The notes: generated by a model from the letters alone, not told the origin. 13,542 bases of DNA from an uncultured bacterium (GCA_963977445.1 CAXBPH010000192.1:1-13542), one strand, 5' to 3'; positions 401 through 13,542 are shown, counted from the stretch's first letter. Numbers and translations are program-made.

Positions 401-1246
401 ATGAAACTGTCCCGTATACCAAAGGTCGCGATACTCTTCGTGCCTGTTTTTGTAGCAAGCTTGTGTGGCATTGCGTCCGCACAGCCGAAACCTGCGGCAA
501 GCGACACGTCGCTAGGAGAGGAGTTGATGGACCTTCGCGCGACCGTAGCGCGGCTAGAGGCGGCACTGGAACAAGACCACAAAGGAATGTCGGCGGATAG
601 CAATGCGGCGTCGAGCAGTTCAGACATGGGGGCGATGAAGGACATGAATGCGGGGGACAAGAAAATGGGGATGATGGGCTCCATGGGCGACAAGGAGATG
701 GGCTCCATGGGCGACAAGAAGATGGGCTCCATGGGCGACAAGGAGATGGGCTCCATGGGCGACAAGAAGATGGGCTCCATGGGCGACAAGGAGATGGGGA
801 TGATGGGGATGATGGGTTCCATGAAGATGAGTCCGGCGATGGCCACTCCGTCGGCATTGCCGGGATTTCCCGGTGCGTCTCACCTGTACCACATTGGCGA
901 AACAGGTTTTTTCCTGAATCACGATGAGCACATCGAACTTTCCAAGGAGCAACGGACGGCGTTGAGCCAGATTAAGGAGAAAGGGCTGCTCGCGAAGAAT
1001 AGCGCCGACCGGCAAATAGAGGAGGCCGAACAAGGCCTTTGGGAGTTGACCGCATCCGAAGAGCCCGAAGCGGCGACGATCGAGAAGCAGGTCCGCCTGA
1101 TCGAAAAGCTTCGCGGCGACCAACGCCTTCAGTTCATTCGGGCCGTTGGCGAGGCCGGTCAAGTCCTGACCTCGGAACAGCGAAAAGCGCTGTTGGGTCA
1201 GGAATCTTCCCAAACCGCGCCGGCCGCCGACCAACAGCAACATTAA
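401..1246 (+). CDS. Secreted/periplasmic Met-rich protein with C-terminal Spy/CpxP/ZraP-like (periplasmic heavy-metal sensor type) helical domain, 281 aa
   Basis: RBS AAGGAG at 387-392. Signal peptide MKLSRIPK-hydrophobic-ASA|Q. 23 Met in residues 76-147. The C-terminal domain has the paired L-[ST]-x-EQ-R motifs of the LTXXQ/Spy/CpxP family (IELSKEQR...VLTSEQRKAL) and a His-rich lead-in (SHLYHIG..NHDEH). Confidence 0.85.
   Translation: MKLSRIPKVAILFVPVFVASLCGIASAQPKPAASDTSLGEELMDLRATVARLEAALEQDHKGMSADSNAASSSSDMGAMKDMNAGDKKMGMMGSMGDKEMGSMGDKKMGSMGDKEMGSMGDKKMGSMGDKEMGMMGMMGSMKMSPAMATPSALPGFPGASHLYHIGETGFFLNHDEHIELSKEQRTALSQIKEKGLLAKNSADRQIEEAEQGLWELTASEEPEAATIEKQVRLIEKLRGDQRLQFIRAVGEAGQVLTSEQRKALLGQESSQTAPAADQQQH
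674..793 (+). repeat. In-frame 24-bp tandem repeat x5 (ATGGGCTCCATGGGCGACAAG[G/A]AG = MGSMGDK[E/K])
   Basis: Units start at 674, 698, 722, 746 and 770. They are identical except for the last codon, which alternates GAG/AAG/GAG/AAG/GAG (a 48-bp higher-order unit x2.5). Confidence 0.97.
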
Positions 1247-1265
1247 CCCCGACAGGAGACAGACC

Positions 1266-1562
1266 ATGAAAGTATCAACAAAAACCACGTCTACACCGTT
1301 TACATGTCACGCACCGGAGGCGAGCCAGGTATTCGTTTCGGGAACATTCAATGATTGGAGTGCGGATGCCACGCCGTTGAAGCCGGGGAGCCGAGGAAAA
1401 TGGTCGGTAAAAGTCGCTCTGGCACCCGGCCATCACGAATACAAGTTTATCGTGGACGGTGTATGGTGCTGTGAGCCTGGATGTGATGGACCCCACACCG
1501 GGTGCATGGGCTGTGTGCCTAACGCGTTCGGAACCATGAACCGGTTTGTTGAGGTAAAATGA
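1266..1562 (+). CDS. Small CBM48 / AMPK-beta-like glycogen-binding domain protein with Cys/His-rich insertion, 98 aa
   Basis: RBS AGGAG at 1254-1258. Family motifs APEASQVFVSGTFNDW, GKWSVKVALAPG.HEYKFIVDGVW and VPNAFGTMN.. are present. No signal peptide. Loop CCEPGCDGPHTGCMGC. The stop overlaps the next start (ATGA 1559-1562). Confidence 0.85.
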   Translation: MKVSTKTTSTPFTCHAPEASQVFVSGTFNDWSADATPLKPGSRGKWSVKVALAPGHHEYKFIVDGVWCCEPGCDGPHTGCMGCVPNAFGTMNRFVEVK

Positions 1563-3595
1563 TGGCTAACTCTGCAATCAGACGCGCCGCCCTGGCGGTG
1601 GTCGTCACGGCTTCGCTGGCCCTGATAGCTGGCTTGGCCACGCCGGTTCATGCGCAAGTGTCACCGGAAGAACACGCCAGCCACCATCCCGGAGAAGCCG
1701 GCGGAGCCGATCCCTCGACCGAGACACCGGCAACGGACCCAGTGGAATCGGGCCCGGTAACGGGCGACGGAGGAATGGCCGACCAGCAGTCGGATAAGGG
1801 CGGCATGGGTGGTGGCGGAGGCATGATGGGCGGAGGCGGAGGCGGTATGGGAAAGATGATGGAGAAGAAGGGTGCGGCTGCGCCGAAGCAGCTCTACCCC
1901 ACCCTCATGGCGCTGCCCGACATGCCGCTGGAGCAACGGCAAGAAGTGCAACAGCAGGCCCACGCGCGCATGAAGGCGGGGGCGGCGCTCATGTCGGAAG
2001 GTCTCCAGGCGCTGTCCCGTACGGCCCCATCGGACGATTTCGCCGCGATGCAGGATGCCTCTGCAACGCTAAGGGAAGGGCTATCCCAGTTTGATAGCGG
2101 GCTCGCCGCCCACCGCGCGCTGGCCGAAGGGAAGGCCCCCCGAAACGTCGCGCTGACGTGGTTCAAGCGTGAGATGAACCTCCTCGCACCTGGCCCTGGT
2201 CAAGTCTACCGGGGTCCTCTCGGTCTATCCTGGCTGCATTTCTTTACCATGTTGATACTTTCGCTCTTTGCCGCGGCCATGATCGCGATGTACTTCTTCA
2301 AGATGCGGCGCGCGGCGGCGCTCTTGGGACGCATCGCGGCGGTGAGCCCGCGCGAAAGCGCTGCCCCCGCGACCGACGGCGTGGCGGCGTCTATGGAATC
2401 TACTGCGGACTCGCCCAGACGGACCTCGATTGATACTGGACAGGCCGCACCCGATGACTGCTGCGGCGGGGGCGGCGGGGATTGCGCGAGCGAAGCGATT
2501 CCGGCCGTGCCCGGCACCTCACACGGTCTGCTCGCGATCGCGGAACGCAAACTTTGCCGCTTGCGCGTCGCCAGAATTGCTCAAGAGACGCCCGATGTAA
2601 AGACGTTTCGACTGGTAGCATGTCACGGGGGAAGCATCCCCTTCAGCTACCTTCCAGGACAATTCCTTACGCTTACGCTTCCGGTGGACGAGAAGCCGAT
2701 TCGCCGCAGCTACACGATATCTTCAGCGCCCACTCAGGGTTACTATTGCGAAATAACGGTGAAGCGCGAAGAACAAGGTGCGGGATCGCGCTTCTTGCAC
2801 GACAAACTGACCGTAGGCGATACGTTGGAGGTCAAAGCCCCCAGCGGGAAGTTCCTGTTCACGGGACAAGAAGCCGACAGCATCGTCCTCATAGGCGGCG
2901 GCGTGGGTATCACCCCGATGATGAGCATAGCGCGCGCCCTGACGGACATGGCATGGCAAGGCGACATCTATTTTATCGCCGCCTGTCAGGATCCGGAGCA
3001 CTTCATATTTGAGTCCGAGCTAGAGCAGTTGGAGGCGCGGTACGCAAACCTTCATCTCTTTGTTGCCATGAGCCGTATTGAGGCTGACATCGGGAAGTAT
3101 CGTAGCGGGCGACTATCGAAGGACTTGCTCGCAGAATGGATACCCGACCTGAAGGAAAAGTGGGTCCAGCTATGCGGGGCACCCGCAATGATGGACGCCA
3201 CCAGCGAAATGCTGAAAGAGCTTGGAGTTCTAGAGGCAGACATTCACACGGAAAATTTCGGCTCAACGCAAAAACCAAAGGCAAAAGTGGCCGAGGGGCA
3301 GGAAGCAGCCCAAAATGCGCGAGAGAAAGAACATGGCATTGTGTTGTCGTTTGCGAAGTCGAACGTTTCGACCGAACTTCTCCCCGATGAAACCGTGCTC
3401 GAAGCGTCTGAGCGCGCCGATGTCAATATAGACTACTCCTGCCGGGTGGGCAGCTGCGGCGAATGCAAGGTCAAGTTACTCTCTGGAACGGTCGTAATGG
3501 AAGAAGAAAGTGGCTTGGATCCCGGCGAGAAGGAATCAGGAATAATTCTTGCCTGCCAGGCTAAATGCAGCGGCAACATTTCGGTGGATGCCTAG
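1559..3595 (+). CDS. Membrane-anchored FNR-family FAD/NAD(P)H oxidoreductase with C-terminal plant-type [2Fe-2S] ferredoxin and exported His/Met-rich N-terminal domain, 678 aa
   Basis: Signal peptide ending VHA|Q, then EEHASHHP and a Gly/Met tract. One TM helix (WLHFFTMLILSLFAAAMIAMYFF) followed by KMRR. FAD motifs PGQF, RRSYTISS, GAGSRFLH. NAD motifs GGGVGITP, LCGAPAM, HTENF. Ferredoxin motif CRVGSCGEC...ILACQ (Cx4Cx2C..C). Start may be 1559 or 1562. Confidence 0.92.
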   Translation: MMANSAIRRAALAVVVTASLALIAGLATPVHAQVSPEEHASHHPGEAGGADPSTETPATDPVESGPVTGDGGMADQQSDKGGMGGGGGMMGGGGGGMGKMMEKKGAAAPKQLYPTLMALPDMPLEQRQEVQQQAHARMKAGAALMSEGLQALSRTAPSDDFAAMQDASATLREGLSQFDSGLAAHRALAEGKAPRNVALTWFKREMNLLAPGPGQVYRGPLGLSWLHFFTMLILSLFAAAMIAMYFFKMRRAAALLGRIAAVSPRESAAPATDGVAASMESTADSPRRTSIDTGQAAPDDCCGGGGGDCASEAIPAVPGTSHGLLAIAERKLCRLRVARIAQETPDVKTFRLVACHGGSIPFSYLPGQFLTLTLPVDEKPIRRSYTISSAPTQGYYCEITVKREEQGAGSRFLHDKLTVGDTLEVKAPSGKFLFTGQEADSIVLIGGGVGITPMMSIARALTDMAWQGDIYFIAACQDPEHFIFESELEQLEARYANLHLFVAMSRIEADIGKYRSGRLSKDLLAEWIPDLKEKWVQLCGAPAMMDATSEMLKELGVLEADIHTENFGSTQKPKAKVAEGQEAAQNAREKEHGIVLSFAKSNVSTELLPDETVLEASERADVNIDYSCRVGSCGECKVKLLSGTVVMEEESGLDPGEKESGIILACQAKCSGNISVDA

Positions 3596-3609
3596 TGGAG
3601 ATATATAAA

Positions 3610-4359
3610 ATGAGGGAACGTGAACCGTTGATCGTGGGCGGCCTCGTGCTGTTCCTTTTCGTGTTGTGGCTGGGTTTCCCGCTCCATGAGTCCGCGCGTT
3701 TTGCGGGCAGCTTCTGGGGTGGGATGCTCGGAGTAAGCGGGAGCGCGCTGATGCTGGTGCCCCTGGCCTACCTGTTCGTAAAGAGAATCAAGCCGCTGAA
3801 GCGATGGCTAACGGGGTTTGTATCGATGCGCACGCTGCTGGCGTGGCACATCTACGCGGGCGTTCTCGGGCCGATTCTCGTATTGGTCCATACTGGACAC
3901 AGGTTTGAAAGCACGTTGGGTGTCGCGCTGACGGCGATGGTCTTGATCGTGGTACTTAGCGGCTTTGTGGGACGGTACTTGATGAGCAAGATTGGCCGGG
4001 AGATTAAGGACAAGCGCGCACTTCTTGATACGGCAAATGTGGAATACGAACGCGCGCTGGAAGAATTGCCCGAACATCCAGAGGAAATATCCCTCGCCCG
4101 ATCGCTACGAAGTGCCACTGCCCGATTGTTTTTCCAAACTGAGGGAAACGCGGACACTCCCCTTCCCACCGGAGTTCGCGCGGTGCGCCTGGCCGAATCC
4201 GTAGCCGATCTCGAGTTTGCCGTTCGCACCCATGAGGCCTTCAAGAGCGCCTTCGCCACCTGGCTGAAGATTCACATCGCCCTCTCCGTTGCCCTCTACG
4301 CGCTGCTCGGCGTTCATGTCTGGGCGGCCCTCTACTTCGGCATAAGGTGGTTTAAATGA
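3610..4359 (+). CDS. Integral membrane di-heme cytochrome b-like protein (ferric reductase-like transmembrane type), 249 aa
   Basis: Start moved from 3565 to ATG 3610 because of GGAG at 3597-3600 just after the upstream stop. About 5 TM helices. Two helices each carry His-x13-His (WHIYAGVLGPILVLVH, His80/94; IHIALSVALYALLGVH, His222/236), the geometry of bis-His di-heme b carriers. The stop overlaps the next start (ATGA 4356-4359). Confidence 0.8.
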   Translation: MREREPLIVGGLVLFLFVLWLGFPLHESARFAGSFWGGMLGVSGSALMLVPLAYLFVKRIKPLKRWLTGFVSMRTLLAWHIYAGVLGPILVLVHTGHRFESTLGVALTAMVLIVVLSGFVGRYLMSKIGREIKDKRALLDTANVEYERALEELPEHPEEISLARSLRSATARLFFQTEGNADTPLPTGVRAVRLAESVADLEFAVRTHEAFKSAFATWLKIHIALSVALYALLGVHVWAALYFGIRWFK

Positions 4360-5171
4360 ACGCTCGAAAAGCAATGACCGGATCTGCGGTAATTCTGACG
4401 CCCACCGCGCTCTTAGTGCTTATGTTCTACGCATTGAGTCCGGTCGACAGCGGACGCAACGGGACGACCCACATGTGGTACTCCGCCGTCAATCCAGGCC
4501 CACTGTCAGCGGCACACGCTCAACTCGAAAATAACTGCGCCGCATGCCATGCCCCCGTACAAGGGGTAACCCCAAGTAATTGCATCGTTTGCCACGCCAA
4601 CGATGCGTCCTTGTTGAAACGCCAGCCCACCGCCTTTCACGCCGAGATCAGCAGTTGTAGTGAATGCCACCTCGAACACAAAGGGCGCGACAAACGCCCC
4701 ACATCGATGGACCATGGGGCATTGGCAAAGATAGCCCTCGGCGATTTAGCAAAGAATCCGGACCCAAACAGTGAAGATCGGGCGACCATGCGGCGAATAG
4801 TTCATTGGCTCACGTTCGATTCTTCGGGATCGGGGCCTGTCGAACCGGGCCTCTCTCCGATCGAGAACAGTCTCGATTGCACCTCTTGCCACGGGAATGA
4901 TGACCGGCATTTCGGATTGTTTGGGGCCGATTGCGCATCGTGCCACGGGACCCAGACATGGACGATTCCGGCGTTTCGCCACCCACCGTCCAAGTCCATG
5001 GATTGTGGTCAGTGCCACCAAGCGCCGCCCAGCCACTACATGGGGCACTTTGCAATGATTTCCAAAAAAGTCGCCGCCCAGCCCCATGCCCAAGTCGACC
5101 AATGTTACAAGTGCCACCAGACCACAGCCTGGCCAGACATTTTGGGCAAGGGCTGGTACAAGCACCACTAA
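4356..5171 (+). CDS. Membrane-anchored multiheme (7 CxxCH) cytochrome c, cytochrome c3-like, 271 aa
   Basis: N-terminal hydrophobic anchor/signal. Heme motifs CAACH, CIVCH, CSECH, CTSCH, CASCH, CGQCH and CYKCH. 13 further His residues are available as distal ligands. Confidence 0.93.
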   Translation: MNARKAMTGSAVILTPTALLVLMFYALSPVDSGRNGTTHMWYSAVNPGPLSAAHAQLENNCAACHAPVQGVTPSNCIVCHANDASLLKRQPTAFHAEISSCSECHLEHKGRDKRPTSMDHGALAKIALGDLAKNPDPNSEDRATMRRIVHWLTFDSSGSGPVEPGLSPIENSLDCTSCHGNDDRHFGLFGADCASCHGTQTWTIPAFRHPPSKSMDCGQCHQAPPSHYMGHFAMISKKVAAQPHAQVDQCYKCHQTTAWPDILGKGWYKHH

Positions 5172-5226
5172 AGATGGAGGAAGTGGTCTCACGCCATCCA
5201 GTGCCAACCAATTGGGAGTCGAGTTC

Positions 5227-6549
5227 GTGTTTGAACAAATAATGGCTGCTGCGGCATACGCCGCTGACGCGGGAGTTCCCGAGAATGCGGACAGCCTCAC
5301 GTTGCTCCTGATCGAGATTTCGGTCATCCTTGTTGCGGCCAAGGGCGGGGGCCATATTGCGCTGAAGCTCGGGCAACCGGGAATTCTGGGCGAACTTGTC
5401 GCTGGCGTCGCAATGGGTGCGCTGTCACGGCTGGTGCTCCCAGGCCAACTCCACGACCTGTTTGTTCTCTCAACGGGACCAGAATCCCATTTGGCCATCC
5501 TGGGCGAACTCGGGATCTTGTTGTTGCTCTTTCGTGTTGGCCTTGAGAGTTCCCCGCGCGATCTGATGGGCGTGGGGGCAACGTCGCTGTTCGTCGCCGT
5601 GGGCGGCGTCTTGCTCCCACTCGGCATGGGATACTTCGTGTGCAACCTTCTTGCTAGCGACTTTCCCGATATTGCCAACAAGTGGCAGATGCACCTTTTC
5701 GTTGGCGCCACCATGGCCGCCACGAGCGTGGGCGTAACTGCGAGTGTACTGTCGGAAATGAAAAGGCTTCGGAGCCGTGAGTCGCGGATCATCCTTGGGG
5801 CAGCGATTATCGACGACATCTTGGGATTGCTGCTGCTTGCAATTATTACGGGAGTCATCGGGGGCACCCAGAACGGCTCAGAGATACGCCTTATTCCAAT
5901 AATCGTGTCGGTCGCGGTGAGCGCATCGATCTTCATTGTCGTCGGAACGCTCGCCGGGACATGGATTGCGCGGCGTTACCTGCGCCTACTCAGGCGGATT
6001 AATGGTTCGGGCGCCTACGCCGCCGGATTGATCGCATTCTGTCTGTTGTTTTCGACCGCCGCTGAACTCTCTGGCCTTGCGCCGATTGTGGGCGCGTTTC
6101 TGGCAGGCCTGGTAATCGATGACGGGGTTAATTCATCCACGGCCGATGTCGCGCGCGACACCGACCAAATCGGGCGCGGGGAGCGCGAGTTGGCTCCAGT
6201 GATCGCGATCTTGGCACCGATCTTCTTCGTGCTCATGGGCATGCAAGTACGCATCGATTCAATATTGTCGCTGAAAATGGCGCTCTTCACCGCCGCGATT
6301 ACGGCAGTGGCAATAATTGGAAAGTTTGTCGTTGGCTTTGTCGTCCCGGGCTCCCTACGAAGCAAAGCGTTTGTGGGGGCCGGGATGGTTCCACGGGGCG
6401 AAGTGGGCCTCATATTCGCCGCCGTCGGGCGAACGGTGGGCGCCATTGGAGAAGAGACTTTCAGCGCGCTCGTTTTTATGGTCATTCTCACCACCTTGGT
6501 GGCCCCACCATTGCTCAAATACTTTGGACGGGATCTCGAAACCGAATAG
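5227..6549 (+). CDS. CPA2-family cation/H+ antiporter (NapA-like), ~440 aa
   Basis: Many TM segments. Motifs LGQPGILGELVAG, LLLFRVGLES, ATSVGVTA, GAAIIDDILG (DD motif), VGAFLAG, PIFFVLMG and GMVPRGEVGLIFA. Likely start GTG 5227 (GGGAG at 5214-5218) or ATG 5242; the 5086 start overlaps the cytochrome gene. No C-terminal KTN/RCK domain. Confidence 0.9.
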   Translation: MFEQIMAAAAYAADAGVPENADSLTLLLIEISVILVAAKGGGHIALKLGQPGILGELVAGVAMGALSRLVLPGQLHDLFVLSTGPESHLAILGELGILLLLFRVGLESSPRDLMGVGATSLFVAVGGVLLPLGMGYFVCNLLASDFPDIANKWQMHLFVGATMAATSVGVTASVLSEMKRLRSRESRIILGAAIIDDILGLLLLAIITGVIGGTQNGSEIRLIPIIVSVAVSASIFIVVGTLAGTWIARRYLRLLRRINGSGAYAAGLIAFCLLFSTAAELSGLAPIVGAFLAGLVIDDGVNSSTADVARDTDQIGRGERELAPVIAILAPIFFVLMGMQVRIDSILSLKMALFTAAITAVAIIGKFVVGFVVPGSLRSKAFVGAGMVPRGEVGLIFAAVGRTVGAIGEETFSALVFMVILTTLVAPPLLKYFGRDLETE

Positions 6550-6892: not shown

Positions 6893-7656
6893 GGTCGAAC
6901 ACACGGAGCGTGGGCATTGTTAGATGCTGTTGTACCAGCAAATCGCCTGCGGCTGACGTGCACTTGTGCAAACCACAAAATATTTCGCCAGGCTGCTAAG
7001 TGGTCAGAAACGAAAGAGGTCGTGTACAGGAACTTTCTTGCAGGCTACGCCTTCGACATTACGCCAGGCATATTGGCATTGAAAACCGGGGGCTTGCCGA
7101 AACTATAAGGGTCGCACGGTTCCCTCTTTGCCAGAATGTTTGAGACGGCCTCCTTGTAAGAATTAGTGTCGAGGGCGAGGAGCCAATAGATGGCCAATAA
7201 TCGTATATCAGGGAAATATACCGGGGAGTGACGCCAAAACGCGGTGCCGCTCCGGACAGAGTCGGTACCGGGACCGGAAGTGCCCGCAGTGCCCCAACCG
7301 CGACGTTTCTCGGCGGATTACAAAGCTGGTATCGTCCAAGAGGCCGACGCGTGCCGTGAAAAGGGAGAGCCACCTGCGTTCCCCGCAGGAGAAAACATTT
7401 CATTCACAAGGCGACAATAGGTAAAGTCCACACCAGAGACGCCTTGACGGACCGATGTTACGAGTATCTCAAGCTGCCTCGCCCTTTCAGCGCCATTCCT
7501 GGGGCATGCCGATGTCTATCTCCTCATTCGTGATTCCGGCCCCTTTTCCACCACCCCACAAACACCCGACACAAGCTTGCGTTTCCCGCACCAAAACCCC
7601 ACACTAAAGCTATGCTTCGGGGGAGGCTTGGCTGCTCCGAAGGCAAAGGAGAGACC

Positions 7657-8793
7657 ATGTTTCGAATTTATGCTGCTTTGTTGATAGCGACCCTCGCCAT
7701 CAGCCCACTCGCCCACGCCAGTTGGATACCCACCTCCAACGTCAACGTCTGGAACGAGGCCACGGAATTAGCGGGACCGAAAATCGTTATTGAATACGAT
7801 CTGGAAGCCCCGGACCTCAGTCCGGCGGCCCCCGCCTATGTCTTCCTCCACTACCGCATGGGCAGCACCGAAAGCTGGACCCTCCTCGAGGCCGATTCCC
7901 TCGGCGGCAATGGCGCGGGCATGGTGGAAGAAGCCGGCCATAAGAAAGTCATCTGGTGGGGTGCGAGCCAGAATGTGCACCAGGAGGTGGACGCCCTCGA
8001 AGTTCAAGTGCGCGCCCTCCCCATGGTCGCCGTCCCCGGCGGGGAATTCAAACTCCGTAGTCTCCCCGGTCAAGGTCGGGACCAATCCGGTCGCCACACG
8101 ACGTCCCGCTCCACCCTCCCCACCTACTATCTGGCGAAGTACGAAACGACCACCGCCATGTATGCCGACTATCTCAATGCCGTGGGCGACGATGGCACGG
8201 GCTACCACGAGAAAATGGCGAATGAAAAACGCTGTGGCATCCTCCGCGGGGAAAACGGCACCTATACGGTGGCACCCGGCCGGGAAAATTATCCTGTCTC
8301 CTATGTCTCCTGGTACGACGCGGTGGGTTTCCTTCGTTGGTGTGGCTTGCGCCTGCCCACCGAATCGGAATGGGAAAAAGCGACCTGCGGCGGACTCTTC
8401 CTGGATGGCGACGAAGCAAAAGCCGTCCCCAATCCCATGCCCGAACGGCGCTATCCCTGGGGCGATGAGGTGCCCAATGCGGAGGGCGCCTTTCGCTGCA
8501 ATTTTGACGGCGAGGAAGATGGCTACCCCAATGTGGCGCCCGTGGGCAGTTTCGCGAAGTTCAACAGCCCCTATGGCGCCTGTGATCTGGCGGGTAACGT
8601 CAATGAGTGGACAATCGACTGGTACACCACCCAACACCATGCCGGACTGGATGGCTACCGCGTAACCCGGGGTGGCTCGTGGCTGGATGTGCCCGAAGGG
8701 TGCGACGGCGTATCGGGTGCTACCCTGTTGCCCTACAAAGAGAGCTCTATCATGGGTTTTCGTGGCGTGAGCGGCCCGCCCGCGCTGCCCTGA
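7657..8793 (+). CDS. Exported formylglycine-generating-enzyme (FGE-sulfatase/SUMF1) domain protein with N-terminal beta-rich domain, 378 aa
   Basis: RBS AAGGAG before ATG 7657. Signal peptide ending AHA|S. FGE-fold motifs KYETT, PVSYVSWYDA, RLPTESEWEKA, RYPWG, PVGSF, DLAGNVNEW, RGGSW and GFR. Lacks the Cys pair of catalytic FGE, so probably a non-catalytic family member. Confidence 0.88.
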   Translation: MFRIYAALLIATLAISPLAHASWIPTSNVNVWNEATELAGPKIVIEYDLEAPDLSPAAPAYVFLHYRMGSTESWTLLEADSLGGNGAGMVEEAGHKKVIWWGASQNVHQEVDALEVQVRALPMVAVPGGEFKLRSLPGQGRDQSGRHTTSRSTLPTYYLAKYETTTAMYADYLNAVGDDGTGYHEKMANEKRCGILRGENGTYTVAPGRENYPVSYVSWYDAVGFLRWCGLRLPTESEWEKATCGGLFLDGDEAKAVPNPMPERRYPWGDEVPNAEGAFRCNFDGEEDGYPNVAPVGSFAKFNSPYGACDLAGNVNEWTIDWYTTQHHAGLDGYRVTRGGSWLDVPEGCDGVSGATLLPYKESSIMGFRGVSGPPALP

Positions 8794-8851
8794 ACGAAAA
8801 ACAACCCTTTGCCGCTTCCTGCTGCAGAGGCAACGATTGGAGGATCAGGTA

Positions 8852-10201
8852 ATGAGTACGCTGAAACGCAGAAGTTTTCTAAAGAGTTCACTCGGCGCCG
8901 CCGCCACGCTGGCCGCACTTCAAGCCGGGGCGGGCGTCTCCGCCAACGACAAGATCATCGTGGGCGTCATGGGCCTCGGTGGCCGGGGCAAGGCCCTCCT
9001 CGCCAGCCTGGCAAAACGGAGCGACGTCCACATCAAGTACCTGTGTGACTGCGACACCCGCATGGCCGGTGCGGCGACGGAAATCGTCATGGAGGGCCTC
9101 GACGAAAAGCCCACCTTCGTACAGGATTTCCGCACCATCCTCGACGACCCGGAAGTCCACGCCCTCATTTGTTCCACCTCCGACCGGTGGCACGCCCTCG
9201 CCACCATCATGGCCTGTCAGGCCGGTAAGGATGTGTACGTCGAAAAACCCCAGTCCATGAGCGTCTGGGACGGCCAGCAAATGATTGCTGCCTCCCGAAA
9301 ATATGAACGCATCGTCCAGGTGGGCATGCAGACCCGCAGCGCGCCCTATGTCCAATCCGCCATGAACTACATCCAGAGCGGCAAGCTCGGCGATGTCATG
9401 CTGGCCCGCGTTTACCTCATGCAGGCCGGTGGCCCCGACCCCACCGCCGACGAACAACCCATCCCCGATGGCCTGGACTACGACCTGTGGTGCGGGCCCT
9501 CTCCCATGCTGCCCTATCGGCCCGGCCTTTGGTTTCAAAAACATTGGGACTTCTACAATGGTGCCTTGACAGGCGACTTAATCCATCAGGTGGATATCGC
9601 CCGACTCCTCATTGGAAAAAAAGCGCCCAACTCCGTGTTCAGCGCGGGCGGCGTTTACCGTTTCGACGATGGCCGCGAACAGCCCGACACCCAGTTCTCC
9701 ACCTTCGAGTTCGACAAGGTGACCATGATGATGGAGGGCGGTTTCTGGTGTCCCTACAACCACCGCATCGTCCACCTGCCCGACAAGAGCAAGTTTCCCG
9801 ACTGGCAATTCAGCGCCACCAAAATAGAAGTCCTCGGCACCCAGGGCATCATGTATTTCGGCCGTCACGGCGGCGGCTGGGAAGTCTTCGAAGGGGACGG
9901 CAAGACGCGCTCCTCCAAGGCCGTCGCTTCAGAGCTCTCCGAATACAAATGGGGCGGCATCATCGACCTTCACTTCGATGATTTCTTCAAATGCATCCGC
10001 GACCGCTCCACCCCCAAGACCGACGTGGCCGACGGACACCATTCCATGAACCTCTGCCACCTCGCCAATATCTCCAACCGCCTGGGCAACCAGAAACTGC
10101 GGTGGGATGGCGAGAAAGAAGAATTCATCGACCACCCGGAAGCCAACCGACTCCTCCGCGCCAAATACCGCGCCCCCTGGGTCATCCCCGAAACAGTCTA
10201 G
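8852..10201 (+). CDS. Tat-signal Gfo/Idh/MocA family oxidoreductase, 449 aa
   Basis: GGAGG at 8839-8843 and ATG 8852. Tat motif KRRSFLK. Rossmann motif GVMGLGGRG. Family motifs DRWH, AGKDVYVEKP, QVGMQTRS, LDYDLWCGP and IHQVD; C-terminal CHLANIS...EANRLL...YRAPW. Confidence 0.93.
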   Translation: MSTLKRRSFLKSSLGAAATLAALQAGAGVSANDKIIVGVMGLGGRGKALLASLAKRSDVHIKYLCDCDTRMAGAATEIVMEGLDEKPTFVQDFRTILDDPEVHALICSTSDRWHALATIMACQAGKDVYVEKPQSMSVWDGQQMIAASRKYERIVQVGMQTRSAPYVQSAMNYIQSGKLGDVMLARVYLMQAGGPDPTADEQPIPDGLDYDLWCGPSPMLPYRPGLWFQKHWDFYNGALTGDLIHQVDIARLLIGKKAPNSVFSAGGVYRFDDGREQPDTQFSTFEFDKVTMMMEGGFWCPYNHRIVHLPDKSKFPDWQFSATKIEVLGTQGIMYFGRHGGGWEVFEGDGKTRSSKAVASELSEYKWGGIIDLHFDDFFKCIRDRSTPKTDVADGHHSMNLCHLANISNRLGNQKLRWDGEKEEFIDHPEANRLLRAKYRAPWVIPETV

Positions 10202-10215
10202 TCTAAAAACACATG

Positions 10216-10251
10216 TGACCCGTCGGTTTTCCGCTGACGGGTCATTTTTTT
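10216..10251 (+). terminator. Rho-independent terminator
   Basis: Stem TGACCCGTCGG / CTGACGGGTCA (11 bp with one G-U), 7-nt loop, followed by T7, starting 14 nt after the stop codon. Confidence 0.9.
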
Positions 10252-10319
10252 GCCTCCGAGGCGGATTTCGACCAGGCCACAAGTGTACCGTCTTGCCTGC
10301 GACCTTTGGAGGGAATACC

Positions 10320-10373
10320 ATGAGGCGAATCGATAATCGCAAGTCATCACCCATGATTGGATCATCACCATGA
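10320..10373 (+). other. Putative 17-aa upstream ORF (MRRIDNRKSSPMIGSSP) coupled to the DUF962 gene
   Basis: GGAGG at 10308-10312 lies 7 nt before ATG 10320. Its TGA overlaps the DUF962 ATG (ATGA 10370-10373), which has no clear SD of its own. Confidence 0.4.
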
Positions 10374-10894
10374 AAAATATCGCCGAACACATGTCCTTCT
10401 ACGAGGCCTATCATAAACACCCCCTCAACAAAGCCACCCACTTTGTGGGGATTCCCATGATTATCTATGGCATCCTGGTTCCCATGAGTGCGTTGGGTGT
10501 GCCCGTCGGAGGCGTTTCCATCACCCTTGCCATGGCCTTCGTGGTGAGCGTCCTGACCTACTACTGCGTACTCGACCGGACATTTGGTATTGCCATGTGT
10601 CTTGTCATCACCCCCATCCTCGCCCTCGCCCATTTTACGGTGCAACAAGGAACGGCCCTATGGATCGCCGTGGCATTGGGGGCCTTTGTCCTTGGATGGG
10701 TATTCCAGTTGTTCGGACACATCGTCTTTGAAAAACGTCGCCCCGCCCTCGCCGACAACCTCTTTCAACTCATCATCGGTCCCCTCTTTCTCTGTGCCGA
10801 GCTATTCTTCATGATGGGCTTTAAGAAGGCACTCCATACACGCGTGTTGGAACTCGCGAAAGGCCATGCCCTGAAGCAGCCGGAAGTGGCGTAG
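10370..10894 (+). CDS. DUF962 / Mpo1-like membrane protein, 174 aa
   Basis: Signature Y..YH..P.N...HFVGIPMI and GWVFQLFGH..FEKRRPAL.DNL.Q.IIGPLF; several TM helices. Confidence 0.88.
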   Translation: MKNIAEHMSFYEAYHKHPLNKATHFVGIPMIIYGILVPMSALGVPVGGVSITLAMAFVVSVLTYYCVLDRTFGIAMCLVITPILALAHFTVQQGTALWIAVALGAFVLGWVFQLFGHIVFEKRRPALADNLFQLIIGPLFLCAELFFMMGFKKALHTRVLELAKGHALKQPEVA

Positions 10895-10924
10895 TGACTG
10901 CAAACACGTATATTTCCGTTCCTC

Positions 10925-10954
10925 ATTCGTGAAAATTCGTGTCCATTCGTGGTT
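10925..10954. repeat. Short 10-bp-period repeat (ATTCGTG x3) between convergent genes
   Basis: ATTCGTG at 10925, 10935 and 10945 (ATTCGTGAAA ATTCGTGTCC ATTCGTGGTT). Confidence 0.75.
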
Positions 10955-11009
10955 CCAGACTGTCGGCACAATCCCTTTACCGCCAGGAGCGGCGAAGGTG
11001 ACCGTCCCG

Positions 11010-12317
11010 CTACCAATACCGCGCCGCCGCACGATAGAGAACCTGCAAATCCTTTTCATCCACGGCGACCGGCGAATTCGAGAGCAGTCGCTGTTGCGCC
11101 CAGGCCCCTTCGGCCAACCCGGGGATGTCCCCCTCCCCGTATCCCAGCGCGCCAATCCCGTTCGGCATGGCTGTGTCACCCATCATCTGGATAACCTGCG
11201 CCGCCAAGACCTCCCCTGCGTCCCCATCCCCCGCACCGGCGACATCCGCACCGAGGAGTTGGGCGATTTCCAGGTGCCGCGCGGGCATGGACGGCGCCGT
11301 AAAACGAACCACCGAGGGCACGTCCACAATCACCGAAATACCGTGGGGACAAATGGGCTCGCCCTGCGGATAGCCGTCAGGACAATAGTCGCGGATCATC
11401 CCCGCCACCGAGTAGGCCATACCATGGGGCAGGTGGACGCCAGAATTCCCGAAGGCGATGCCCGCCAGCGTCGCGGCAAACATCATGCCATGACGGGCTT
11501 CGGTGTCGGTGGCGTCGCGAACCGCACGCACGAGGAATTCCCCGCAACTGCGCAGGGCCTCCCGGCAGCCCACATCGCTCCAGGGATTGGCCCCCTGCCC
11601 CATGGGCCGCAGGTCGGGACGTTCGGGCGCGGGGCGGCGGGTGTAGGGCCGGGCGGTGTAGGACTCCAGCGCGTGGCTGAGCACGTCAAAACCGCTGGCG
11701 GCCACCACATTGGCGGGCAACGTGGCGGTGACCGTAGGGTCGATGAGGGCGAGGGTCGGACGCAGGCGGCGCGAGGCGATGCCCGTCTTCACGTGGCGCT
11801 CCAGCAGGTCGAAAATGGCCATCCCCGTGCATTCGCTGCCCGTGCCCGCCGTGGTGGGACAGGCAATGTGGGGTTTCAGCGGCCCCGGCACAGCACGACC
11901 CTCGCCGATAGGGGCATTCACATAGGCCAGAAACTCCGCCGGGTAGGTGGCGTAAAGGTTGGCCGCCTTACAGGTGTCGATGACCGAACCGCCGCCAACG
12001 GAAACATAGCCATCAAAATTACCATCCGATGCAAAACGGGCTGCCTCCTTAAAAGATTTGTCCGTCGGCTCGACGCGCACGGCGTCATAGACCGCCACGT
12101 CCACACCCGCCTGTTCCAGAGCCGTTCGGACCGTGGCAACACATTCCAACTGCGCCACATCCGCATCGGTAAAGAGGGCTACGCGTTTCAAGCCAAGTTC
12201 ATTGGCCCCGTGCCCGGCTTCCGCCAAGGCTCCCGGCCCAAAACGGATGGCGCTTGGGTCTACAGAAAAGACGTGCTCGTGGCCGTCCATAAATTCATAG
12301 TGATGGCAGCAGGACAT
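11010..12317 (-). CDS. Hydroxyacid-oxoacid transhydrogenase (HOT/ADHFE1-like; iron-containing alcohol dehydrogenase family), 435 aa
   Basis: RBS GGAGAG before the ATG at 12317. Motifs [77 protein letters not shown] and PHGISV are characteristic of the HOT subfamily. Confidence 0.9.
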
Positions 12318-12631
12318 AAAACGCTCTCTCCGATTGGTTGCAGATAACAGGATAACGCAACAGCCATCGAAAGAGATAGTCTTGGCCACCACGTTGGCAG
12401 CGGGCCATAGACGCTCGGTAAGCCGGTAGCTCCATGGGCTTCCATTGGAATCACGACAAGGGTGCCACCTATACGGACGGGAGGCACGAGCGGCCTTATG
12501 GGTGCAAGCGATTGCAGGGCCACCTATCCTTCAGATAGTATGGCGCTCCCTTTGAAATATCCCGGCAGGTTTGGCAGCCACGATGCTTACCAACTCCGCA
12601 TAACAACGCCATCATAAACAGGAACACCAAA

Positions 12632-13276
12632 ATGGAAATGATCCCTGAAGTGGATGAGTACATCGAGAAAAACGAGGCTTGGCAGGAGGAGCTGCGCGCC
12701 TTACGAGCGATTGCTCTGGACTGCCAGCTTGCGGAAACACTGAAATGGCGTGTGCCCTGCTACACGTTTCAGGGGAAAAATGTGATTATGCTCGGCAGAT
12801 TCAAAGAATATTGTGCCCTGAGTTTCATGAAAGGCGCCCTGTTGAAGGACTCCCAAAAGATTCTCGAATTACCCGGCGAGAACACGCGGTCAGGCCGTGT
12901 TATTCGCTTCACCACCGCGCAGAAAATCGCGGAGATGGCCCCCATCTTAACGGCCTATATCGAAGAGGCCGTTGCGGTGGAAATAGCGGGGCTGAAAGTA
13001 GATTTCTCAGAAAACCGAAACCTCGACTATCCGGAAGAACTGCAAGCCAGGCTCGATGAACTCCCCGCCTTGGAAAAAGCCTTTGATGCCCTGACCCCCG
13101 GTCGAAAACGGGCCTACGTGATGCATTTCGCAGCGGCCAAACAATCCACGACCCGGGCGTCACGGGTCGAAAAATTTATGCCGAGAATTCTCGATGGCAA
13201 AGGACTGAATGATTGCACCTGTGGCCATTCCAAGAAGATGCCCCAGTGTGACGGCTCCCACAAGAACTTTCGGTAG
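12632..13276 (+). CDS. YdeI/OmpD-associated family protein (DUF1801 + OmdA-like) with C-terminal CDGSH iron-sulfur motif, 214 aa
   Basis: VDEYI...W.EEL..LR, ETLKWRVPCY, FKEYCALSFMKGALLKD, AFDALTPGRKRAY and AKQSTTR..RVEK..PRILDGKGLND, then CTCGHSKKMPQCDGSH. AGGA upstream; the start may be 12632 or 12638. Confidence 0.88.
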   Translation: MEMIPEVDEYIEKNEAWQEELRALRAIALDCQLAETLKWRVPCYTFQGKNVIMLGRFKEYCALSFMKGALLKDSQKILELPGENTRSGRVIRFTTAQKIAEMAPILTAYIEEAVAVEIAGLKVDFSENRNLDYPEELQARLDELPALEKAFDALTPGRKRAYVMHFAAAKQSTTRASRVEKFMPRILDGKGLNDCTCGHSKKMPQCDGSHKNFR

Positions 13277-13474
13277 GTGATGGTGCCCCCGGGATTGTGA
13301 ACCAAGCGACACGTCTTACCAGGTCGTCTCCGCGCACCTGGCTTGTTGGTTCAGCGTTGTCCGCCCCGAATTACGAAGGCAAAGGGAATTCCGTCATCTC
13401 CCCGCACACGGGGCTGTTGATTTAATGTGCGGAGTACGAATAGACCCTACCAACCTGTATCTAGCGCCCACAAC

Positions 13475-13542
13475 GTCATTCCCGCGCAGGCGGGAATCCA
13501 GTAGGTATGCTCGGTTTCTGTGTTCGCGTTACTGGATCTCCG
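13475..13542. repeat. REP-like extragenic palindrome (GTCATTCCCGCGCAGGCGGGAATCCAG) with the start of an inverted partner, truncated by the window edge
   Basis: ATTCCCGC-GCAG-GCGGGAAT hairpin (ATTCCC-N8-GGGAAT, the same core as Neisseria dRS3). ATCCAGTA (13496-13503) is inverted as TACTGGAT (13530-13537). Confidence 0.75.

Follow-up and report, generated by a model that had tools for sequence, protein, structure and literature searches.

Electron transfer from cytoplasmic NAD(P)H to the outer face of the membrane is known from the NOX/FRE and STEAP families. In these proteins two HX13H pairs lie on helices 3 and 5, a cytoplasmic dehydrogenase binds flavin adenine dinucleotide (FAD) and NAD(P)H, and electrons leave at the outer face, where some members reduce Cu(II). 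NOX/FRE proteins have six helices per chain, the last of which leads into the dehydrogenase domain. A split arrangement, in which a reductase and a membrane cytochrome b serve the periplasm, is found in Escherichia coli MsrPQ, with Fre as its partner. Here we describe a gene cluster that resembles both arrangements in part, at positions 401-6549 of a 13,542-nucleotide stretch of DNA from an uncultured bacterium (GCA_963977445.1 CAXBPH010000192.1:1-13542). This stretch, hereafter the window, is an entire contig (C192) of the host genome G000, which is 94% complete; the genes of the cluster are labelled A to F in order.

Two further groups of described systems are relevant. He et al. 2017 (PMC5566968; Supplementary Table 6) list porin-less clusters from Bradyrhizobium japonicum and Rhodopseudomonas palustris TIE-1 that comprise a 7-haem cytochrome of 256-258 amino acids, a membrane protein of 231-235 and a redox protein of 608-702; the available text of the same paper describes five-helix PCC3/PCC4 proteins with SGxxG and two HX13H motifs, for which quinone exchange was modelled. 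CcoG, CopG/CutG and NDH-2 alter the redox state of copper, CopG being found in copper clusters, but CcoG carries Fe-S clusters and CopG is a soluble tetracopper protein, and neither is described as an NAD(P)H-to-periplasm haem chain in the available text of PMC7558416 and PMC8456105.

Genes A, C, D and E form a four-gene mobile unit that is widely conserved, and the sequence evidence identifies this module as a real, copper-linked candidate for a transmembrane electron conduit. We give a probability of about 0.5 to the reading that it is a split NOX/FRE-like conduit, which would deliver NADPH electrons to bound periplasmic copper. The features of the module are as follows.

401..1246, + strand: gene A (281 amino acids), exported; signal peptide, Met-rich linker, conserved LPGFPGxSHxYHIG segment and Spy/CpxP/ZraP-like helical domain.
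673..798, + strand: tandem repeat of a 24-bp unit (5.2 copies) that codes for the Met-Gly-Ser-Met-Gly-Asp-Lys-type repeat of A.
1559..3595, + strand: gene C (678 amino acids), reductase with signal peptide (1-32), periplasmic QxSPEEHAxHHP motif and Met/Gly tract, membrane helix, FNR domain and C-terminal [2Fe-2S] domain.
1655..1690, + strand: predicted mature N-terminus of C with His39, His42 and His43, invariant in 45/45 and also present in 6/8 plasmid copies checked.
2213..2308, + strand: single membrane helix of C, from hydropathy; His227 near the outer face, invariant in 45/45.
3610..4359, + strand: gene D (249 amino acids), five-helix di-haem cytochrome b candidate; His80/His94 on helix 3, His222/His236 on helix 5, SGxxG on helix 4.
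4356..5171, + strand: gene E (271 amino acids), exported or N-anchored heptahaem cytochrome c candidate with spare conserved His/Met and a C-terminal YKHH.

Two more genes stand in the same row.

1266..1562, + strand: gene B (98 amino acids), cytoplasmic CBM48/AMPK1_CBM glycogen-binding-type domain (Pfam, 56.9 bits) with a Cys-bearing insert; accessory.
5227..6549, + strand: gene F, cation/proton antiporter, CPA2-like; recurrent island cargo outside the core.

The six genes are separated by 19, -4, 14, -4 and 55 nucleotides, F having a GTG start at 5227. No terminator-like site lies in these gaps, and the + strand matches in 401-6549 are weak and intragenic. A preliminary description of the stretch had reported the same co-oriented genes and gaps without an internal terminator, and both are recovered here. 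Scanning the window gave no Rfam match and no convincing sigma-70 site, no inverted repeat was found 5' of A, and a look-up of RNA runs for the window returned none.

The conserved unit was defined by comparing loci. One search gave 1144 homologs of D, and a second gave 2014 representative clusters. From the 112 loci retrieved, six short ones and a distant one (L023) were removed, leaving 105 for counting; many are related, so that locus counts are not independent. The order C-D-E is constant: C lies directly upstream of D in 86 of the 87 loci with enough flank, and E lies downstream of D in 90/90. A is frequent (27 of 44 loci with enough flank). B, in contrast, occurs in 11/105 loci, where it is placed between A and C, and close homologs of F in 4/105, while any Na/H exchanger marker is seen in 9 of 43 long loci. 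The six-gene unit of the preliminary description was rejected on these counts. B has no hydrophobic segment, and its Cys69 and Cys83 are invariant in 9/9 aligned sequences.

Named carriers include genomes of Nitrospirota, Planctomycetota and Verrucomicrobiota. Among 72,556 plasmids D is present in 55 and E in 54, mostly from sphingomonads, Alteromonas and Legionella, and the cultured strains with the module on plasmids include Sphingobium sp. SYK-6, Variovorax and Alteromonas macleodii HOT1A3. C-D-E corresponds to SLG_RS19695-19705 on pSLPG in SYK-6 and to ACZ81_RS20290-20280 on pAM1A3 in HOT1A3. In a tree of 23 D proteins, which includes no one-clade test and two long rows that are perhaps badly trimmed, the copies of genomes G067 and G069 group with Bradyrhizobium and Variovorax plasmid copies (100/100), that of G064 groups with G039 (96/99), and the window copy stands apart with weak support. 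Because same-genus copies occupy three places on this tree, the link between module and copper described below is not a single inheritance; the pattern suggests repeated transfer with the copper link retained.

Gene C combines a periplasmic domain, a membrane anchor and a reductase. Hydropathy gives two hydrophobic segments, 5-32 and 219-250, and Pfam places the FNR and then the [2Fe-2S] domain behind them; residues about 106-210 form a helical domain with no family assignment, and an Atlas search with residues 100-262 gave leads that were all under 0.8. The core FAD/NAD motifs and CX4CX2C...C are conserved in 43/43 full-length rows. With RxYT, GxGxTP, CG and CX4CX2C...C, and with FNR before ferredoxin (the Hcr/PaaE/GbcB order), C belongs to the FNR-[2Fe-2S] class; as an equivalog of Hcr, PaaE or GbcB it falls below each NCBIfam cut-off (245/500, 201/383 and 184/421 bits). 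The [2Fe-2S] motif expected from the preliminary description is thus present, not as a separate ferredoxin relay, but as the C-terminal domain of the reductase itself. The invariant His39, His42 and His43 would make the mature N-terminus a candidate periplasmic copper site. The helix of C is predicted to run from outside to inside, and may by analogy match the last helix of NOX/FRE in topology. The nucleotide-binding loop contains Ser-Arg (Arg506 in 36/43 rows), a loop associated with NADPH preference in FNRs, and this analogy suggests NADPH as the donor. The cargo of the islands points the same way: zwf/gnd are found in 4/43 and glycogen phosphorylase in 5/43 long loci, and malic enzyme also recurs. 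From loop and cargo together, the donor is probably NADPH.

In two metagenome loci (L094:3648-4343 and L100:95-790) C stops past the membrane helix and has no FNR, yet is still 5' of D and E. These variants fit a structural role for the outer domain and helix, and show that FNR can be lost. L094 also has a multihaem c/cytochrome b fusion upstream of the module. P0186, seemingly a C-D fusion, was excluded because it looked frameshifted.

Gene D is the candidate haem b protein. A predicted model (predicted local distance difference test, pLDDT, 83) and hydropathy both give five hydrophobic segments, a long cytoplasmic coiled coil is present, and His26 and His97 are extra histidines predicted at the outer face. 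His80, His94, His222 and His236 are invariant in 116/116 close homologs, and all four are found in 80/86 distant ones. Among fold matches, in which Z values near 10 are common among helical bundles, the best is a designed two-haem bundle (Z 10.6, 99 residues aligned, root mean square deviation 2.5), followed by E. coli superoxide oxidase (Z 10.3, 134 aligned, 3.3); FdnI, STEAP4 and Dcytb score about 8.6-8.8 (STEAP4 8.6), and non-haem bundles reach similar values. The comparison fits a haem-b bundle for D, without proving one. A Foldseek search of D against PDB gave no match at E up to 0.001, and none of D, E and A had a sequence match below E 0.01 among solved structures.

Definitions of the FRD superfamily are given in the available text of Zhang et al. 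2013 (PMC3591440). D carries the four haem histidines as HX13H on helices 3 and 5. It has five membrane helices where NOX/FRE proteins have six in one chain, the sixth being a putative contribution of C, and the dehydrogenase that NOX and long-form FRE fuse behind the haem domain is here a separate upstream gene in 86/87 loci. D would operate in the manner of an FRD protein, but since the six-helix and fusion tests failed, we keep it out of NOX, FRE and MsrQ. The NOX signature, given as His-119 plus Thr-178 in the available text (PMC3591440), may have a loose counterpart: His97 of D is at +3 from His94, against +4 in NOX, and Thr108 is found in 37/86 distant homologs, its register relative to the NOX Thr not being established. 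MsrQ/YedZ has Arg for the first haem His, whereas D keeps His80 (85/86 distant homologs). Compared with NOX/FRE and STEAP, D also differs in its long coiled coil and its Pfam score below cut-off, and the module differs in that its dehydrogenase is encoded apart from the haem protein and has a membrane helix, a [2Fe-2S] cluster motif and a periplasmic His/Met domain of its own, and in the added heptahaem cytochrome.

D also shares features with the PCC3/PCC4 inner membrane proteins. D has five helices, S117-G118-x-x-G121 on helix 4 and WX3HX13H on helix 5 (W218-H222-H236); on helix 3 the Trp of WX3HX13H is lacking, position 76 being Leu or Pro. The porin and large multihaem cytochromes of PCC3/PCC4 are absent from the window and, among the loci seen, occur at the distant L023 only. 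That locus (L023:6898-18001, genome G094) is a PCC3-like cluster. It encodes a multihaem cytochrome and a porin-like protein, together with a fusion of 4Fe-4S, flavoprotein and D-like parts and a protein of >1699 amino acids with multihaem repeats. As its D relative (hhalign 94.8%) carries the flavoprotein fusion, beside a porin and giant multihaem cytochromes, the membrane family of D pairs with cytoplasmic flavoproteins elsewhere too. In seven loci (L004:1983-3602, L005, L007, L009, L019, L020 and L065) D has a C-terminal extension of about 290 amino acids, which is DUF547 in L004 and L007 and by marker in five of the seven; L101 has a separate DUF547 gene.

The module also resembles the porin-less clusters of He et al. 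2017. Like them, it has a 7-haem cytochrome of about 258 amino acids, a five-helix protein with two HX13H, a redox protein of 600-700 amino acids and no porin, and their sizes match those of its Bradyrhizobium BTAi1 copy (258 and 234 amino acids), a match of size and motif only. On this basis the C-D-E core appears to have been listed in 2017, and the novelty suggested by the preliminary description holds for the lack of characterisation but apparently not for the discovery itself, since clusters of matching anatomy and size had been seen already. The available text of that paper gives no function, copper link or gene A (PMC5566968), and that of PMC8478169 does not mention the module genes. 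No functional study of the module was found in the literature searched, a coverage that leaves out most subscription papers.

E has exactly seven CxxCH in 50/50 homologs, and His54, His95, His120, His185, His209, His227 and Met229 are invariant beyond the haem motifs. Its AlphaFold model is poor (pLDDT 54) and was excluded from the fold search, and an Atlas search with E gave generic multihaem clusters bearing automatic names. In the host genome no Ccm-type maturation genes were found; two cytochrome c assembly proteins are present. Thus, all the cofactor motifs named in the preliminary description, from FNR to CxxCH, are present and conserved among homologs, and the arrangement it proposed, with the reductase inside, the cytochrome outside and electrons passing from FAD through [2Fe-2S] and haem b to haem c, fits the conservation, hydropathy and fold evidence.

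The N-terminus of A is signal-like, and its linker region has 25 Met and 1 His in 127 residues. Of the Met/His-rich sponges described earlier, the Met-rich character of A therefore stands and the His-rich character does not, and the second tract turns out to be the N-terminus of reductase C. The helical domain of A is below cut-off for Metal_resist (24.3 bits against 29.2) and for LTXXQ and Spy, and the match to ZraP among solved structures is weak (E 0.14). His161 and His164 are invariant in 29/29 homologs. From its sequence, A is likely to be a Cu(I) buffer or chaperone.

The module was then compared with the distribution of copper genes. Among 135 genomes of the host phylum, close D homologs occur in five, plus one distant D-like fusion, and the identical five genomes carry D, the outer domain of C, A, CopB (above cut-off) and the CopA oxidase. 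In the remaining 130, apart from the distant fusion, none of these five is above threshold, and one sub-cut-off CopB match was seen. The MerT control is found in 3/135 genomes, one of them a module carrier. In a sample of 351 genomes from a second phylum the C domain occurs in four, two of which were known as carriers beforehand, and 4/4 have CopB, which is found in 5/351. In the host genome itself, copA, cut at the contig start, and then copB lie on another contig (G000:C200:2-1479). No overlap was found between the start of the window and C200 or any other contig. The earlier statement that no oxidase or efflux pump accompanies the module is true of this contig, but not of the genome.

The neighbourhoods of the module agree with this distribution. 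With ten loci left out because they were short, distant or near-duplicates, 43 of at least 11 kb remained; a copper marker is present in 30 of these against 175 of 5000 random 15-kb windows of the host genome, an enrichment that is overstated because the markers were derived from the same, partly related loci. Among annotated plasmid regions 6/9 name copper genes, and heavy-metal ATPases or RND pumps are found in the remaining three; the genome of L012 has copB, an RND pump and a multihaem cytochrome. The metal suspected in the preliminary description is thereby supported and narrowed to copper.

Co-travel of this kind raises the question of whether the module acts on copper at all. It could serve in general stress or in NOX-like superoxide chemistry, share mobile islands with copper genes and have no copper function, which we consider improbable. 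The islands do also hold gdhA, glycogen, antiporter, mercury and hydrogenase genes, and the extra His past the outer helix-3 His of D loosely recalls the NOX signature. That His, however, is at +3 and not +4, C and A have copper-type His/Met motifs of their own, and the near-exact co-occurrence in two phyla is with copA/copB and not with merT.

The same neighbours bear on a second possibility, foreshadowed in the preliminary description as re-reduction of oxidised Met: that the module supplies reductant to keep periplasmic Met, thiols or apocytochromes reduced under copper stress, as MsrQ or DsbD do, by way of a partner encoded elsewhere. The Met-rich tracts of A and C would suit this role, copper blocks c-type cytochrome assembly according to the available text of PMC8456105, one plasmid has a ccm/ccdA set after the module, and an MsrB gene is present in 1/43 loci. 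No MsrP lies in the window, however, and an MsrP-type enzyme is absent from 3/5 host-phylum carriers; family PF00174 was not found in G000, the host genome, in G067 or in the closed genome G069. Among the scanned neighbours, reductases for Met-sulfoxide or thiols do not recur, and D retains four His, unlike YedZ/MsrQ. We regard this protective role, which is weakened by these absences, as unlikely.

From the genes, motifs, conservation, order, mobility and co-occurrence with copper genes we infer cofactor binding, topology, complex formation, direction, donor and acceptor of a conduit as follows. The module would be a mobile four-gene accessory of a CopA/CopB (PcoAB-type) copper system, with electrons flowing outward. 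NAD(P)H, probably NADPH, would reduce FAD in the cytoplasmic part of C; electrons would pass to the [2Fe-2S] of C, to the inner and then the outer b haem of D, and to the seven c haems of E, a sequence that is downhill by typical potentials. If D is oriented like ferric-reductase helices 1-5, with positive loops inside, His80/His222 would lie inside and His94/His236 outside. The single helix of C may pack against the five of D, giving a NOX/FRE-like six-helix unit split across two genes; that is, C and D would be a NOX/FRE protein divided between helices 5 and 6. His26 and His97 of D and His227 of C, on the outer face, could form a metal or extra haem site. The acceptor would be copper on the outer face, held by His/Met sites of C, D and E and by Met-rich A. 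About two thirds of this reading lies in a Cu(II)-to-Cu(I) step, whose product would be stored or exported by Cu(I)-specific routes or loaded into the oxidase, and about one third in further reduction to Cu(0) where the oxidase lacks sufficient oxygen. Eukaryotic FRE/STEAP proteins reduce Cu(II) by a comparable route, as given in the available text of PMC7558416.

Several observations weigh against copper reduction. The chief objection is that a cupric reductase next to a cuprous oxidase risks a futile cycle. This objection loses force should reductase and oxidase work at different oxygen levels, or should the oxidase need Cu(I) for loading; maturation of CutO draws on Cu(I), according to the available text of PMC8456105. 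Co-travel on copper islands can reflect shared selection without a shared reaction, 13/43 long loci have no copper marker, and CopB is found in 4/10 other carriers, among which all six Planctomycetota, whose genomes are incomplete, lack it. D scores 18 bits against the ferric-reductase family PF01794 (cut-off 28; E 0.003), its profile comparison with one full-length bacterial ferric reductase gave no match (probability 1.8%), and talin bundles match its fold equally well. The FNR-less C stands beside D in the two metagenome loci, and the Alteromonas copy heads a hydrogenase cluster.

The futile cycle would disappear if the multicopper oxidase were itself the acceptor, E passing NADPH electrons to CopA oxidase and oxygen being reduced to water; the oxidase would be kept reduced and active, or periplasmic oxygen scavenged so that Cu(I) yields fewer radicals. 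The oxidase is the commonest neighbour of the module (21/43 long loci), lies directly after E in L021, L022 and L075, and is present in the same 5/135 genomes. On the other hand, 22/43 long loci have no oxidase, the conserved His motifs of C and D would be left unexplained, and seven haems seem excessive for a one-electron donor. We hold this acceptor to be rather unlikely.

The Alteromonas copy raises the possibility of inward or shared flow, in which H2, via hydrogenase, or a reduced metal would act as periplasmic donor, electrons passing through E and D to quinone, or through C to NAD(P)+. On pAM1A3, A-C-D-E lies directly before orf2-hynD-hupH-hynS-hynL (L109:11557-27002), a [NiFe]-hydrogenase cluster without a listed cytochrome b subunit, in whose record hynL and hypF look fragmented. 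D and E occupy the two places of orf1 and cyt, an assignment by position and not by sequence. The cluster is located in a metal-resistance island according to the available text of PMC5217437 and PMC4781885. The quinone activity modelled for related membrane proteins in the available text of He et al. 2017 (PMC5566968), and the FNR-less variants of C, would also suit inward flow. According to the available text of PMC3102683, orf1 and cyt were cloned without C and are given no function; against inward flow, they proved dispensable for hydrogenase activity in E. coli. The neighbours scanned in other loci include no hydrogenase family; large-subunit motifs were found in 0/112 loci, a weak test, as the pattern missed the Alteromonas hydrogenase too. 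By established potentials, moreover, Cu(I) is unable to reduce NAD(P)+. Inward flow appears to us a long shot.

Outward flow to copper can also be put in a bolder form, which we consider doubtful. The module would be a dedicated periplasmic copper reductase, a third arm of defence beside efflux and oxidation: a split NOX-like enzyme, made of a five-helix haem protein and a one-helix reductase, that would send NADPH electrons via nine haems to Met/His-held copper and deposit Cu(0) when the oxygen-dependent oxidase is idle. The islands would bring their own NADPH supply, and the Alteromonas hydrogenase would be a second electron source.

Other genes recur around the module. Glutamate dehydrogenase, which may bypass a copper-sensitive glutamate synthase, is encoded (gdhA) in 11/43 long loci (e.g. 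L001:198-1562, L003:6782-8143 and L090:6308-7783) and is inserted between A/B and C in L003, L006 and L090. The islands repeatedly carry genes for glycogen phosphorylase, isoamylase or debranching, and B itself is a CBM48 protein. DUF1622 genes stand beside E (L104:16360-16803, L105, L107, L108 and L101; 6/43 loci by marker) and are found on most sphingomonad plasmids, and a full-length bacterial ferric reductase with fused haem, FAD and NAD domains lies directly after E in L039:11463-13112. In the window, 6949-7420 is a non-coding stretch with a 58-amino-acid remnant, which has no Pfam match and which we take to be transposase-like; similar DNA is found on contigs C70 and C1, and this is probably the edge of an inserted island. 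Past the module, 7612-13276 encodes FGE-sulfatase-like, Tat-exported Gfo/Idh/MocA oxidoreductase, Mpo1-like and Fe-alcohol dehydrogenase genes and a DUF1801-OmdA protein with a C-terminal CDGSH motif. The contig end falls within a dispersed intergenic repeat (13390-13542) that spans 70-150 bp and matches about 50 contigs of the genome.

In the available text of a 2020 review, CcoG is the sole specific bacterial cupric reductase, and its donor is unknown (PMC7558416). If the module reduces periplasmic copper, its NAD(P)H-to-periplasm chain would fill this gap and name an electron source for periplasmic copper redox chemistry, would account for the NADPH and glycogen cargo of the islands, and could be a missing reducing step of bacterial copper defence. 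The module would also give an entry point to the uncharacterised five-helix HX13H proteins found in proposed electron-transfer clusters, and its presence on plasmids of cultured strains makes it directly testable.

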